Source: Pseudobdellovibrionaceae bacterium (GTDB lineage Bacteria > Bdellovibrionota > Bdellovibrionia > Bdellovibrionales > Bdellovibrionaceae). Taken from it: DNA of 10,022 bases. The stretch covers positions 1 through 10,022 of the forward strand of contig JBIKLL010000088.1 of assembly GCA_044359815.1 (NCBI GenBank). Direction: 5' to 3'. A program made the position numbers and the translations under genes. The number at the start of each line of letters is the position of its first letter. Position 1 is the first letter of the stretch. Positions 1 through 10,022 of this stretch are shown here, in pieces. The notes under the pieces are model-generated. The model searched no databases, was not told the DNA's origin, and was given only the letters and a program-made list of their open reading frames with translations.

Positions 1-207
1 CTGGTGTTGAGTCATTTTATAAAAGCAAAAAAATTGCTTTTATAAAATGATTCAATACGAGAGATGAGCCCGCGGCCGTTAGCGAGTGTCTAAAAATAGT
101 GAAAAAAATTATCTTTGCATTTACGCATCACGAGATATGCCATGCGCGCTCGCAAATGTATTCAAAAGGTGTAAAAACATAGAAGTATTTTTAGATTCAA
201 ATTAACC
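1..207. repeat. Modular palindromic element, copy 1 (left-truncated): end of motif B, hairpin tip Z1 (4-58), motif A (56-84), arm Y' (85-125), motif B' (126-153), outer arm X' (158-207)
   Basis: 1-17 is identical to 9869-9885 and 56-131 is identical to 9946-10021 (76 bp). 158-192 is the reverse complement of 9736-9770 at 31/35. 4-28/34-58 form a 25-bp stem with two G-T pairs and a 5-nt loop. Confidence 0.92.
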
Positions 208-258
208 AGCTTTAGCGAGCTTGTTCTTGACTAAACTAACTGGCTTTCTGAAACTAGA

Positions 259-3878: not shown

Positions 3879-3921
3879 ATCCATATGAAATCTGCCTCAG
3901 ATTTGGTTTTTTTATATGGAT
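3879..3921. terminator. AT-rich stem-loop between convergent genes, possible terminator
   Basis: ATCCATATGAAA (3879-3890) pairs with TTTTATATGGAT (3910-3921). An alternative AAATCTG/CAGATTT hairpin is followed by GG and a T-run. Confidence 0.35.
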
Positions 3922-4100
3922 TTTCTTGAGTAAGTGATTCTAAAAATCAGAAATCTAAATGTTTTTTTATTTAAGTAGACCCTCTGCGGAGCCGGGATGG
4001 CGGGGGCTCGGCCCGAGCAGAGAAGCAGGAGCTGTGGTCTACTTAAATAAAAAAACATTTAGATTTCTGATTTTTAGAATCACTTAATAAAGAAAAGCCA
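3917..4100. repeat. Long palindrome: perfect 51-bp inverted arms with a GC-rich multi-hairpin centre (REP/REPIN-like)
   Basis: 3931-3981 is the exact reverse complement of 4036-4086, extending to 3917/4100 with 3 mismatches. The 54-nt centre contains CTCTGC/GCAGAG, GCC-GGGAT-GGC, GGGC-TCG-GCCC and AGC-AGGA-GCT. Confidence 0.92.
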
Positions 4101-5665: not shown

Positions 5666-5688
5666 GATAATCCTCCGTAATGTTTTTT

Positions 5689-5887
5689 TGACCTACAGGT
5701 TATTTATAAAAAATAATTGAGATCTTTTTTATTAATTTAATGCCTTTCGCTAACGGCCGCACTTCGTCTCCCGTGTTGCATCATCTGTCGATGCCGCAAC
5801 ACTTAGGTACGCAGAGCGCGACGCTGCACAAGTCATTAAAATAACAAAAAAGATTTCAATTATTTTTTATAAATAACCTGTAGGTCA
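5689..5887. repeat. Modular palindromic element, copy 2 (single layer): 58-bp arm, motif A' variant (5748-5778), mini hairpin, motif B' variant (5797-5828), 58-bp arm
   Basis: 5689-5746 and 5830-5887 are reverse complements at 54/58. CGCTAACGGCCGC is the exact reverse complement of 72-84. CAACACTTAGGTACGCAGAGCGCGACGCTGCA aligns with the reverse complement of 9846-9877. Confidence 0.9.
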
Positions 5888-6037
5888 GTTAAAAAATAAA
5901 CTAAATCCTTGGGGGTGATCAGATCGCAAAAGGTTTGGCCTGGCAAACAAATGTTGGTGCTCTGACCCACAGCTGCAGTTTAGAAATCTGAGGGTGAGGA
6001 GCAATGCAATGTCGAACTAGGGGTAGCGGCTATGCGG

Positions 6038-8662
6038 CTACGCTAGCTGTTTTGAAATCAGCTCAAAGGTGTTGCTGGAAAGTTTTTGATCCACCAGCCA
6101 TTTTAAGTTTTTCTTAAGCTCTGTTTGTAAATCCTGATCCAGTTTGGGCAGCACATCAAAGCTTTGAGCTAAGCGGGATGCCACGGCGGGATTTAATTCG
6201 TCAACGGCCTTGATCATCTGGCAATAGAAGTTATAAGTAGGCTTTTTCAGATCATGAAACACCAAATGATTTTCAGCAAAATTAGCTAACAGCGAATACA
6301 CACGATTAGGATTTTTCAGATTAAATTCTTTATGGTGGGTCATCTTTTGCACATCTTCAAAGGTTTGTTGGTGATCAGATAGCGCAATCAATGCAAACCA
6401 TTTGTTCAATACCAATGATTCAGAATTCCACCGATTAAAAAATAAACTGATAGCTTCGGTTCGGTAGCGTTCAGTTTCCAACAACAAACCAAAAGCCGCT
6501 TGCTGATCATTCATCAACTGACTTTCCTTGAGCTGATTAAAGGCCAAGCCTTGGTGTTTAGGTAACCGTGTTAAATATCCCAGGCAGGCATTCTGAATTT
6601 TACGCCGCCCAAACGCTTTCTGCGAAATCTCAACATCAGTGGATCTGAAGCAGTTTTGATAGGTATTCAGAAATTCGCTTTCATTGGCTTTGGCAATGGC
6701 TGATTCAAAAACAGATCGGGCTTTACTGAGAGTGGTTGAATTAAATGAATCCAAATTCTGAATCAAAAAACCATCATCAGGCAGAGTGATCAGCAGAGCC
6801 AACATTCTGGGGACCAGTTTCCCGTCATTTAAAATCTTTGAAAACAGTTTTAATATATCAGGATTAACGACAGGTTGATTGCCGGCAGCGCAGTCTTTGT
6901 AAATCCTGACAAATTCGTTTAAAAATATTTTTTGAGCGCTTTCCCATCTGACAAAAGAATCATTGTCGTTTTCTATTAAAAACAAACTGTCAGTAAAGCT
7001 TTGGTCAAATTCCAGGTAAATAGGGGCCGAAAACTGCCGATTGATGCTCAAGATAGGTTTTTTGTTAATGCCGTTTATTTTGATTTCTTGCGTGGTCGAT
7101 TTCAGATTGGCAATGTAATGACCTTCTGAATTCTTAGTCACGGCAGGGTTATTGTCTAAATCAATCAATCCTTTGGATCCGAAAATCTGCAGATCCAGTG
7201 GAATGTGAAATTCAAATTTCTGATATCCGGATTTAGTTTCTTCAGCCGTTGGATCGCAAGTTTGAGTTAATGTGACAATGTATTCCTTGGAGCCAGAATC
7301 GAAAGTTTCGGTGACTTTTACCCTGGGCGTACCGCCTTGAAAATACCAGCGCTCAAACTGCTGCCAATCTTGGTTGTTTGCTTTAGCAATGCAATCTGCA
7401 AAATCCTGAATGGTGACGGCCTTGCCATCAAATTTTTCAAAATATAAATCCATGCCTTTTTTAAATCCTGGCCGTCCCACAATGGTTTGCATCATGCGAA
7501 TGACTTCAGCGCCTTTTTCATAAATCGTTGAAGTAAAAAAGTTATCTACAGCAAAACAACTGGTGGGCTGCACTGGGTGAGCATTGGGTCCAGCGTCTTC
7601 GGGAAACTGAGAGCTTCTGAGGTCCCTTACGGTTTGAATTCTGACCAAACCTCGGTCTGACATATCCATTGAAAATTCTTGATCACGAAACACTGTCAAG
7701 CCTTCTTTAAGACTCAGATTAAACCAATCCCTTAGGGTCACTCTGTTGCCGGTCCAATTGTGAAAATATTCATGAGCTATCACTGATTCGATGTTGTCAT
7801 AATCAGAATCCGAAGCTGTTTTGGGATCAGCAAAAACCAATCTGGAATTAAAAATATTTAATCCCTTATTTTCCATGGCACCTGCATTGAAATCATCACT
7901 GGCCACTATCATGTAGGTGTTCAGATCGTATTCGCGATCAAATCTTTGCTCATCCCATTTCATTGATTTGATCAGGGACTCCAAGGCAAACTGGCATCTG
8001 GATTCTTTGCCATGACTGCAATAGATTTCAAGATTGACCTTTTTGCCTGATCGAGTTGTGAATTGGCCTTTCAGTAATCCTAAATCGCCGGCAACCAAAG
8101 CAAACAAATAACAAGGTTTTTTGTAAGGATCTTTCCAGATCACTTGGTGACGGTTGTTTTCAAGCATGGTTTCAGAAACCTTGTCCCCATTTGACAATAA
8201 AATGGGATACAGTTTTTTGTCGGCGGTGATTTTAACAGTGTATGAAGTCATGACATCAGGTCGGTCTAAAAAATAGGTGATCCGTCTAAATCCCTGAGGT
8301 TCATTTTGTGTCACCAGCATTTCGCCGCTTTTATACAAACCTTCCAGTCTGGTGTTTTTAGCAGGATAAATTTCAGTTTCATTTATCAGTTCAAAAGTTT
8401 TTGGAACATCAAACACAGTCAGCGTGGATGGACCAACCGTGTGTTTGCATTCAGATCCGTTTAATAAAACTTTTTTAAGCACTAAGTCTTCGCCGTCCAG
8501 AACCAAGTCTTTATCATCACCGATTTTTGCAATCTGCATGGTGTTGATAACCCTTGTGCAATCAGCATGTATGTCAAAGCTTAGATCCAAGGACAGGATC
8601 TCGAAACCAGGTATTTTATAGTCTTTTAGGAATTGCTTTGTGTGTGAGCTCATAGAGTTCAT
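6038..8662 (-). CDS. pepN: Aminopeptidase N (M1 family); alternative start at 8653
   Basis: 874 aa with GAMENKGLNIFN, HEYFHNWTGNRVT, LSLKEGLTVFRDQEFS, YEKGAEVIRM and NPNRVYSL, all diagnostic of PepN. Confidence 0.98.
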   Translation of the reverse strand: MNSMSSHTKQFLKDYKIPGFEILSLDLSFDIHADCTRVINTMQIAKIGDDKDLVLDGEDLVLKKVLLNGSECKHTVGPSTLTVFDVPKTFELINETEIYPAKNTRLEGLYKSGEMLVTQNEPQGFRRITYFLDRPDVMTSYTVKITADKKLYPILLSNGDKVSETMLENNRHQVIWKDPYKKPCYLFALVAGDLGLLKGQFTTRSGKKVNLEIYCSHGKESRCQFALESLIKSMKWDEQRFDREYDLNTYMIVASDDFNAGAMENKGLNIFNSRLVFADPKTASDSDYDNIESVIAHEYFHNWTGNRVTLRDWFNLSLKEGLTVFRDQEFSMDMSDRGLVRIQTVRDLRSSQFPEDAGPNAHPVQPTSCFAVDNFFTSTIYEKGAEVIRMMQTIVGRPGFKKGMDLYFEKFDGKAVTIQDFADCIAKANNQDWQQFERWYFQGGTPRVKVTETFDSGSKEYIVTLTQTCDPTAEETKSGYQKFEFHIPLDLQIFGSKGLIDLDNNPAVTKNSEGHYIANLKSTTQEIKINGINKKPILSINRQFSAPIYLEFDQSFTDSLFLIENDNDSFVRWESAQKIFLNEFVRIYKDCAAGNQPVVNPDILKLFSKILNDGKLVPRMLALLITLPDDGFLIQNLDSFNSTTLSKARSVFESAIAKANESEFLNTYQNCFRSTDVEISQKAFGRRKIQNACLGYLTRLPKHQGLAFNQLKESQLMNDQQAAFGLLLETERYRTEAISLFFNRWNSESLVLNKWFALIALSDHQQTFEDVQKMTHHKEFNLKNPNRVYSLLANFAENHLVFHDLKKPTYNFYCQMIKAVDELNPAVASRLAQSFDVLPKLDQDLQTELKKNLKWLVDQKLSSNTFELISKQLA

Positions 8663-8756
8663 TATATGGGGACTGTAAAGGCATCAAGCAACAAAATAGT
8701 TTTTAGCTGTGGGCTTAGCTGTTGCAGTTGCTCTGAAAATCATATTAACTAGCCCA

Positions 8757-9689
8757 ATGCCAGTACTGCACTTGCATTTAATTACATTCATATTGGGTAT
8801 GGGAATCAGTCAGATAAAATCAAATCTGCGATTTCCTGAAAGCTTTTATCAGGTTGTTTCAATTTACCTGTTGTTTGGAATTGGATTTAAAGGCGGGGCC
8901 GCCATCAGGGGTATTGAACCTTCATTTTTTCTGAAATCGCTTATTGTTTTATGTATTGGGATTTGTGGGACCTTTGCTCTGGATCAGTTGCTTAAAAAAT
9001 TAAATGTTTTGGACGCGCCTAACAGATTGGGCTTGGTTGCCCATTTGGGGTCTGTTTCAGCCATTACATTTTTAACTGCCATGGAATTTTGGCGGTCCAG
9101 ACTGGGAAATGCTTCATCTGAATGGGCGTTTTTTTTATTGCTGTTGGAGCTACCCGGAATTTTGTACGCCGTGATGCTGTACCAAAAAAGCAAAACCGGC
9201 AGATTTAATTGGTCAGCGATTGGTGATATTTTGCGGGGCAAGAGCTTTGTGCTGTTGATCGTGGGATTTGCCGCCAGTTTTTTAGCTTCGAAATCTAGGG
9301 AATTTGATTTTGCCTTGGGATTTTTCACCAACCCTCTATCAGGTATTTTGTGTTTATTTTTGTTAGATTTGGGTATTTATTCTGGCGAACGTTTTTCGGA
9401 CCTGCGTGGGATTTCTAAGAAGATTTTGTTTGCGACTTGGGGATCATCTGTTTTTTTTGGATTGCTTAGCGGATTGATTTGTAAATTGTTGGGGTTTTCA
9501 CCCGGAGAAGCCTTTATCGTTTCAGTATTGATAGCCAGCGCTTCTTACATCGCCGCACCTTTGGTAGTCAGAAACGAAATTCAAGAAGCCAATCCGGCCT
9601 TGGGATTGAGCTTAAGCTTGGGATTGTTATTTCCTTGGAATCTGATGGCAGGCATCCCAATCTATTTTTGGTTTGCCAACCTGTTTTAG
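8757..9689 (+). CDS. sbtA: Sodium-dependent bicarbonate transport family permease (SbtA/DUF897); ORF track start is GTG 8709, ATG 8757 preferred
   Basis: Multi-pass hydrophobic protein with SNLRFP, SIYLLFGIGFKGG, AHLGSVSAITF, LFLLDLG, ASASYIAAP and SLGLLFPWNLMAGIPIY, matching SbtA family motifs. Confidence 0.88.
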   Translation: MPVLHLHLITFILGMGISQIKSNLRFPESFYQVVSIYLLFGIGFKGGAAIRGIEPSFFLKSLIVLCIGICGTFALDQLLKKLNVLDAPNRLGLVAHLGSVSAITFLTAMEFWRSRLGNASSEWAFFLLLLELPGILYAVMLYQKSKTGRFNWSAIGDILRGKSFVLLIVGFAASFLASKSREFDFALGFFTNPLSGILCLFLLDLGIYSGERFSDLRGISKKILFATWGSSVFFGLLSGLICKLLGFSPGEAFIVSVLIASASYIAAPLVVRNEIQEANPALGLSLSLGLLFPWNLMAGIPIYFWFANLF

Positions 9690-9716
9690 TACAATCCAAC
9701 TGGCCGCTCTGCCTGC

Positions 9717-10022
9717 GGTTGATTAGAATTTTAAAAAAAATATTTCCATGGTTTTACACCTTGTGAATACTTGCTAACGGCCGCAAGCTCATCTCTCGTA
9801 TTGCATAAATGCTAAGATAATTTGTTTTTACTGTTTTTAGACACATGCAGCGAGCGCGCGGGGCATATCTGGTGTTGAGTCATTTAATCTAGCTATGTAT
9901 ATGATAAATTATTAATCATATACATAGCTAAATTAAATGACTCATTACGAGAGATGAGCCCGCGGCCGTTAGCGAGTGTCTAAAAATAGTGAAAAAAATT
10001 ATCTTTGCATTTACGCATCACC
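9717..10022. repeat. Modular palindromic element, copy 3 (two nested layers, right-truncated): X (9717-9770), A' (9773-9803), Y (9804-9844), B (9847-9877), tip Z3 (9876-9944), A (9946-9974), Y' (9975-10015), start of B'
   Basis: A' 9773-9800 is the reverse complement of A 9946-9973 at 26/28. Y/Y' are inverted with 4 substitutions and a 1-nt gap. The tip is a 30-bp stem with one mismatch. B 9850-9877 is the reverse complement of 126-153 at 24/28. Confidence 0.93.

Follow-up and report, generated by a model that had tools for sequence, protein, structure and literature searches.

A dispersed, gene-less hairpin repeat with a conserved asymmetric core and locally matched arms in Bdellovibrionales

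The origin, the spread and the perfect pairing of bacterial palindromic repeats that carry no transposase are an old open question. It is raised again by three intergenic loci of one contig, where two motifs (A and B) had been predicted to face each other at the tip of arms that are largely unrelated but each nearly perfectly self-complementary. What are these structures, how are their arms kept matched and what makes them spread? The window analysed here (10 022 nt) is the entire contig C113 of a 2.95-Mb, 91%-complete Bdellovibrionales genome (G000). Its genes encode an S1/P1-like nuclease, a DUF4360 protein, PepN and Sbt_1, and none of them is related to the A/B element. Sequencing runs that contain this DNA are lake-water metagenomes. 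Both motifs were found at the three loci. The 12-mer GCTAACGGCCGC, which is part of A, occurs four times in the window (72-83 and 9962-9973 on the minus strand, 5749-5760 and 9773-9784 on the plus strand) and any match to it was obtained in 0 of 200 shuffles. The full A motifs lie at 53-84 and 9943-9974 (minus strand) and at 5748-5778 and 9772-9803 (plus strand). The B motif is also present, but as originally written, with its two N positions, it matches only the copy at 5797, the nested copies being one base shorter. The arms at these loci are indeed near-perfect inverted repeats, and they fold far more stably than shuffled sequences (z = -11.7 for 5678-5898 and z = -12.7 for 9717-10022).

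The locus predicted at 9717-10022 is real but larger: the element starts at about 9698 and is a nested double cut by the contig end. Its order is A-X-B'-tip-A'-X'-B, one unit lying upside-down in the tip of another. The outer left arm (9698-9771, plus strand) starts 9 nt past the stop codon of Sbt_1 (gene 8709-9689) with the terminal motif of the A/B family, and its partner arm lies past the contig end. It is followed by the outer A half-core (9772-9803, plus strand) and by arm X of the inner inverted unit (9804-9845, plus strand), which pairs with 9976-10017. The inner B half-core (9846-9877, minus strand) and the inner A half-core (9943-9974, minus strand) flank an AT-rich tip hairpin, Y (9878-9942, no strand assigned), whose differences from its sister-strain orthologue are mirrored. 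Just before the cut come arm X' and the beginning of the outer B (9975-10022, plus strand). The left-hand locus (1-220, plus strand) is the right half of another nested copy, with a tip hairpin at 1-61, A at 53-84 on the minus strand, then X', B at about 126-153 and an outer arm from 158. Because the tips differ, this locus, first delimited as 1-207, is half of a different copy than the one at 9717-10022. The third locus is a simple, single-core copy (5678-5898, plus strand) with arms at 5678-5746 and 5830-5898, A at 5748-5778 and B at 5797-5824. A sister family with a different core (3982-4035) and the same layout is represented at 3917-4100 (plus strand).

The A/B element is a dispersed, gene-less hairpin repeat, with a lopsided core of about 80 nt at the tip of arms of 45-130 bp. 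The exact A motif was found 139 times in the G000 genome and the reversed control 0 times. These motifs form 93 loci (clusters), of which 32 lie within 250 nt of contig ends, and the predicted joint occurrence of A and B in a gene-less, multi-copy family was borne out. Fifty-six complete copies were recognized (29 nested, 22 single and 5 with damage or a partial deletion), the commonest form being the nested one, to which the copy at 9717-10022 belongs. The outer A lies opposite B, intact or damaged, in 56/56 complete copies and opposite its own complement in 0/56. Copies with genes on both sides are found between converging genes in 35 of 51 cases, compared with 108 of 513 for control gaps (150-600 bp). 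The distance between core and stop codon is 60-110 nt in most cases. At co-directional sites (n = 14), the orientation of the core showed no link with the transcribed strand (7 vs 7). No replichore bias of the copies was detected with a test in which a G-rich control octamer did show bias.

Twenty-seven distinct cores were taken from six genomes, and their constant parts are GGCCGCA, CRTMTC and GATAYGC. The TAAC of A, formerly taken as part of an invariant stretch, varies across genera: it precedes GG in only 8 of these 27 cores. In 20 sequences, pairing of the central A:B helix reaches 98.9%; 2 of its 9 pairs have changed on both sides, and a single mismatch is retained. The strand opposite A' folded better in 29/30 cores with RNA parameters and in 30/30 with DNA parameters, and wobble pairs in the tip favour the same strand (25 vs 3), an asymmetry that is inflated by composition and by the kinship of the copies, which are not independent, but whose direction is consistent. 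Mismatches of the outer arms, read on the A strand, are A-C in 35 cases and G-T in 16. These results support the idea that a single folded strand matters, but the favoured strand is the complement of A' and not the A' strand. An invariant GNNA/GNA DNA mini-loop on the folded strand was considered and rejected; many copies fit it and several G274 copies do not. GNA triloop words were counted 12 vs 6 on the two strands. When searched against Rfam, 0/15 window matches reached the gathering score and six other loci gave 0 matches, in line with the prediction that no described Rfam family is involved.

Conservation drops outward from this central asymmetric core. The statement that arms are unrelated holds between arm positions and for older copies (arm identity between 10 older single copies is near background, 44% vs 38%). 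It does not hold for the main, young outer arms of G000, which are homologous between copies (64% vs 36% when shuffled), nor for arm X, which is nearly constant across nested copies. A terminal arm motif was found at 51 ends of the A/B family, at 7 ends of the sister-core family and at 16 other sites. Its occurrence with two different cores supports the interchangeability of arms that had been proposed. Among 42 termini, an A stands two bases before the motif in 36, and a T one base further out in only 14. As a terminal repeat, the motif is present at the 51 arm ends of the young subfamily and was unseen in the G344, G346 and G274 copies apart from one. Departures of the outer arms from their consensus are mirrored in the partner arm in 187 of 299 cases (63%), compared with a mean of 8% and a maximum of 13% in 500 re-pairings. 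In 23 copies from G344, G346, G274 and G293, an arm is 91% identical to its own partner, 33% to other copies and 32% to shuffled sequences. Mirroring is not at work everywhere, since nested copies share nearly the same X/X' mismatches.

Arms can also be inverted copies of host DNA, which the original prediction had missed. The 3' end of oppC was compared in five species of one genus: a hairpin is present in four and the site is empty in G346. The hairpin consists of an A/B core with 133-bp arms in G344, and of other cores with their own arms in G343, G345 and G347. In each filled species the far arm is an inverted copy of the end of its own gene, which is its best match. The numbers of matched bases with the own gene end and with the other species were 27 vs at most 8 in G344, 28 vs at most 13 in G343, 16 vs at most 7 in G345 and 15 vs at most 13 in G347, with 8 for the empty G346. 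The C-terminus encoded by oppC is conserved in all five species, so the copied bases are those of the native gene and do not come from read-through. The site recurs, since in G274 the core also lies behind a gene with an oppC-like end. In a G344 copy behind a rhomboid gene, the arm mirrors 23 nt of the gene end, and the C-terminal residues are kept in four orthologues. In two G344 copies the arm mirrors part of an adjacent unrelated repeat. Where the arm of a G344 or G346 copy overlaps a gene end, the gene is on the A side in 4 cases and on the B side in 1. Evidence of this kind is weak in G000: a mirrored coding end of at least 12 nt, with a fully matching mirrored UTR, was found for 3 of 2224 genes, and 7 were counted without the UTR filter vs 4-5 in shuffled controls. 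One of the three, an alkylation-repair gene, carries an A/B core, and its homologues align to residue 248-249 of 252; in these mirrored-end genes the reading frame may have been extended into the arm. The family separates a core conserved across genera from arms rewritten from local DNA, down to the synonymous codons of the species. At the G347 orthologue (L176, G347:C1) of another site (L058), a core-less, AT-rich and near-perfect hairpin was seen right past the gene end; it possibly consists of arms remaining after core loss.

The core recurs in five other genomes belonging to four other genera. The exact A pattern was present in 3/384 genomes of the order and hits of a covariance model in 4/151 genomes of the phylum, G000 being included in both counts; the model adds G274 (15 hits), G293 and G377. 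Three of the 14 G274 copies examined lie between divergent genes. In a pattern scan of GTDB, 4 of 48 among the matches listed were true elements, all from Bdellovibrionales. The viral_contigs collection gave 0 matches and the plasmid collection only short matches at chance level. A first metagenome scan gave 0 matches; a second gave 18 stretches, of which 9 come from a sister strain and 9 are without the element layout. The nine sister-strain contigs carrying the motif are about 87-96% identical to G000. In the orthologue of the 9717 copy, the outer arm and the cores are alike and the tip differs at many mirrored positions. The orientation of the core is reversed between strains at 4 of 7 other aligned orthologous sites, these inversions being read from short-read assemblies with possible mis-joins, and single and nested forms swap while the outer arms are retained. 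Element sites are not conserved between sister species, and the distribution is patchy and bursty. The oppC site of G346 is empty, and no empty allele was seen in eight lake-water metagenome runs, searched as contigs that break at repeats.

The original prediction assigned the movement of the element to an enzyme encoded elsewhere, but no enzyme tracking with the core was found in any of six families (Y1/RAYT, reverse transcriptase, IS110, PDDEXK_2/Rpn, GIY-YIG and tyrosine recombinase). Y1/RAYT genes are present in G000, G344, G346, G293 and G377, and gave no match in G274 (99% complete, with its 15 core hits), G343 and G347. Neither A nor B lies beside any of the nine Y1 hits of G000, an assembly 91% complete from which a gene between two copies could be missing, or beside the Y1 gene at the 23 of 24 loci of eight relatives where a frame was found; no motif-flanked RAYT or Y1 gene was thus seen in these genomes. 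One RAYT-like gene of G000 (L238, G000:C8:9501-10136) matched NF047646 with 72.5 bits (cut-off 80) and is flanked by its own terminal inverted repeats, which differ from A/B. Dispersed doublets of these repeats number at least 22. In 14 clusters a doublet encloses a third core family between AT-rich arms; 8 doublets have no core and 3 cores have no doublet. In G344, the arms of one A/B copy start with the RAYT terminal repeat of that genome. Eight other Y1-like genes of G000 (L002-L009; C23, C47, C48, C49, C56, C100, C125 and C8:23373) are 85-91% identical, have no terminal repeats and are mostly preceded by short tandem repeats; this class is also multi-copy in G345 and G346.

Reverse transcriptase (PF00078) was detected in 4 of 11 genomes tested, including G293 and G377, and was absent from G000, G274, G344 and G346. 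IS110 was found in 3 of 10 genomes tested and is absent from G000 and G274, and PDDEXK_2/Rpn in 0 of 10. For GIY-YIG, each genome has one long frame (577-686 aa), with one additional weak hit of 318 aa in G346, and no small enzyme of this type tracks with the core. Two tyrosine recombinase hits were obtained in G000 (open frames of 312 and 324 aa), neither of them beside a copy; from their size and number they are read as XerC and XerD. An all-vs-all paralogue search of 2632 ORFs of G000 revealed no gene family flanked by the element. SbcD scores passed the curated cut-off in none of the 20 genomes examined from the order (five of them single-contig) vs 8 of 14 controls. SbcCD is reported to remove long-hairpin structures (PMC3733652). 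The apparent lack of SbcCD across the order would let such hairpins persist, and it is not specific to element-rich genomes.

The explanation towards which we lean is that of a hairpin repeat whose arms are matched and lengthened by fold-back copying, and whose core is a folded single-stranded DNA signal for the enzyme that spreads it. Fold-back (template-switch) copying would take place during replication. Mirrored substitutions, outward growth into host DNA and inversion of the core are reported as products of template switching (PMC8604942), which we infer to have acted here. This process is reported to homogenize the arms of inverted repeats, to lengthen them and to invert spacers (PMC8604942), in cases with arms of 7-16 bp, far shorter than those of A/B. 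The spread itself would require a protein acting in trans, which reads one folded DNA strand and copies the element. Such a protein is proposed because the core has been conserved across genera without ever being perfected, has one favoured strand, is not tied to the direction of transcription and has expanded in bursts. DNA would be read rather than RNA, and the strand read would be the complement of A'. The nested form presents an identical fold on both strands, and it may dominate because the folded core is then shown on both. As no enzyme was found, and no empty allele in the lake-water runs, mobility is deduced from the copy number and from the patchy orthologous sites. The family offers a natural, testable case of replication-driven hairpin building at the 50-130-bp scale, and its core of about 80 nt would be a defined bait for the protein that reads it. 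A bolder proposal, which we advance with much reserve, is that of a new class of mobile DNA: an 80-nt mismatched single-strand signal would insert behind genes and copy its target backwards into its own hairpin (an inverted target-site duplication) by means of a host or unrecognized enzyme, and several unrelated cores would share this chemistry in Bdellovibrionales. If the arm is made at insertion, the inverted target duplication would be a footprint of transposition of which no description was found in the literature searched.

Alternatively, a RAYT/TIRYT-type HUH transposase would recognize the arm termini or the core and copy the entire hairpin, which would be a REPIN turned inside out with the core as cargo. 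This is unlikely, but several data fit it: the RAYT-like gene of G000 with its own inverted repeats, the third core family in their doublets, the G344 copy that starts with a RAYT terminal repeat, and the terminal motif at 51 arm ends, which is loosely like the RAYT terminal repeats of the order. Compensatory changes are moreover reported in REPIN spacers (PMC3116915). This reading is opposed by the lack of A or B beside the nine Y1 hits of G000 and at 23 of 24 Y1 loci of eight relatives, by the three genomes (G274, G343 and G347) without a Y1 or RAYT match and by a conservation that is central and not terminal. We consider it slightly less probable still that the core moves alone, a nick being made beside it and the 3' end folding back to copy 50-130 nt of the target into an inverted duplication. 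In its favour, arms are copy-specific in G344, G346, G274 and G293 (33% vs 32% shuffled) and contain gene ends and truncated parts of adjacent repeats, the overlapped gene is mostly on the A side (4 vs 1) and sister species hold different cores at one site. However, the young G000 copies carry related arms with a common terminus, which shows that core and arms can move together; the native side varies and no close empty/filled pair was found.

A structured RNA, or a bidirectional terminator or mRNA stabilizer, kept by the host at 3' ends and spread by gene conversion without a dedicated enzyme would agree with the excess of copies between converging genes (35/51 vs 108/513), with the short distance of most cores to a stop codon (60-110 nt), with the wobble pairs on one strand and with the lack of an enzyme family tracking with the core. 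It is made improbable by the absence of orientation bias relative to transcription (7 vs 7), by copies lying between divergent genes, by the patchy and bursty distribution (3/384 genomes of the order, 4/151 of the phylum) at sites unconserved between sister species, and by the absence of an Rfam match. In integron attC sites the folded DNA is strand-specific, its mismatches are conserved, its tip varies and RYYYAAC pairs with GTTRRRY. The A/B element shares the folded single strand, the conserved mismatches and the variable tip, and A contains CTAAC. Its AAC pairs with no GTT and is not conserved, however, and neither the paired boxes, a cassette array nor an integron integrase accompany the copies, which are dispersed and not arrayed between cassettes. 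Only two tyrosine recombinase hits were obtained in G000, neither adjoining a copy. The attC-like reading, that of a site for such a recombinase, is very improbable. The last explanation, that library preparation or assembly created the perfect arms by fold-back, deserves the least credit. The assemblies are short-read metagenome assemblies and 32 of the 93 loci are no more than 250 nt away from a contig end, but the arms have fixed mismatches and end lengths typical of the family, the layout recurs in independent assemblies of many genomes, and a sister strain, assembled separately, has copies at orthologous sites. This doubt concerns the inversion and nesting differences between strains only.

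The A/B element belongs among the non-autonomous palindromic repeats and is REPIN-like, but without the terminal REP pair and the cognate RAYT. No description of the family was found in the openly accessible articles searched; the supplementary REP/TIR lists of PMC3733652 and PMC6006769 could bear on its novelty. Like REPINs, it is gene-less, intergenic and multi-copy, folds as a single long hairpin and shows compensatory changes in its variable part (as reported for REPINs in PMC3116915 and PMC6006769). REPs are described mainly between co-directional and converging genes (PMC3733652). A REPIN has conserved inverted REPs at its ends, whereas conservation of A/B is central and asymmetric with the variable part outside; the ends of A/B showed no GT[AG]G-tagged REP pair, and no cognate RAYT gene carries the A/B motif. 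A/B arms can moreover copy host DNA, and A/B copies nest upside-down in their own tip. The TIR families of TIRYTs are long inverted repeats around Y1 genes that also occur as dispersed dimers (PMC3733652). The terminus of A/B arms is partly like their reported GGGGWSAS motif on its complement, and in G000 a sister core is carried inside Y1-type doublets. In contrast, no Y1 gene is bounded by the A/B arm terminus or core, and sections 14 and 16 of PMC3733652 describe no conserved asymmetric core for TIR families. ERIC/IRU, RPE, YPAL, CIR and other MITE-like repeats are reported as hairpins of 100-400 nt near gene 3' ends, with a mobilizer mostly unproven (PMC2229807, PMC3184786 and PMC10969869). 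According to these accounts, such palindromes have a family-wide sequence and terminal inverted repeats, most with TA ends or direct target duplications, whereas in most genomes each A/B copy has arms of its own, and host DNA is duplicated in inverted orientation. CIR is described as two separate stem-loops, unlike A/B (PMC2229807). Template switching at quasi-palindromes is reported to homogenize arms in the same way and can lengthen them and invert the spacer (PMC8604942; see also PMC8794818), but as described there it is a passive mutation process with arms of 7-16 bp, which leaves a conserved, dispersed and never-perfected core unexplained.

The sister family has at least 41 copies with arms in G000. 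Its core is 54-70 nt long, the two arms of a copy are 95% alike while those of different copies are 55% alike, and converging genes flank 22 of 36 copies. Related cores were detected in G012, G024, G103, G120 and G121. These five genomes were picked with a loose sister-core pattern, which served for this choice only: its matches across the order were mostly due to chance, and two G119 loci were rejected as coding matches. The GGA-containing hairpin loops of the sister core may resemble CsrA sites. In the window, a short GC-rich motif just past the pepN stop codon (6001-6043) looks like another type of repeat and may resemble the Rickettsia-type palindromic elements. Downstream of two G274 copies of A/B (L252 and L256), frames that we assume to be transposase-like start at distances of 89 and 332 nt. 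A separate repeat family of G344 and G346 lies beside an IS110 transposase gene (G344:C72 and G346:C22) and often adjoins A/B hairpins or sits inside them (L161, L165 and L166). Multi-copy proteins with an HNH-like C-terminal motif were noted in G000 (C107, C17, C34, C35, C19, C48, C8:4044, C120 and C50), and behind four of them their own last codons are imperfectly repeated. Finally, a region of about 65 kb in G346:C36 matches in two opposite orientations and results either from a large inverted duplication or from fold-back of the assembly.
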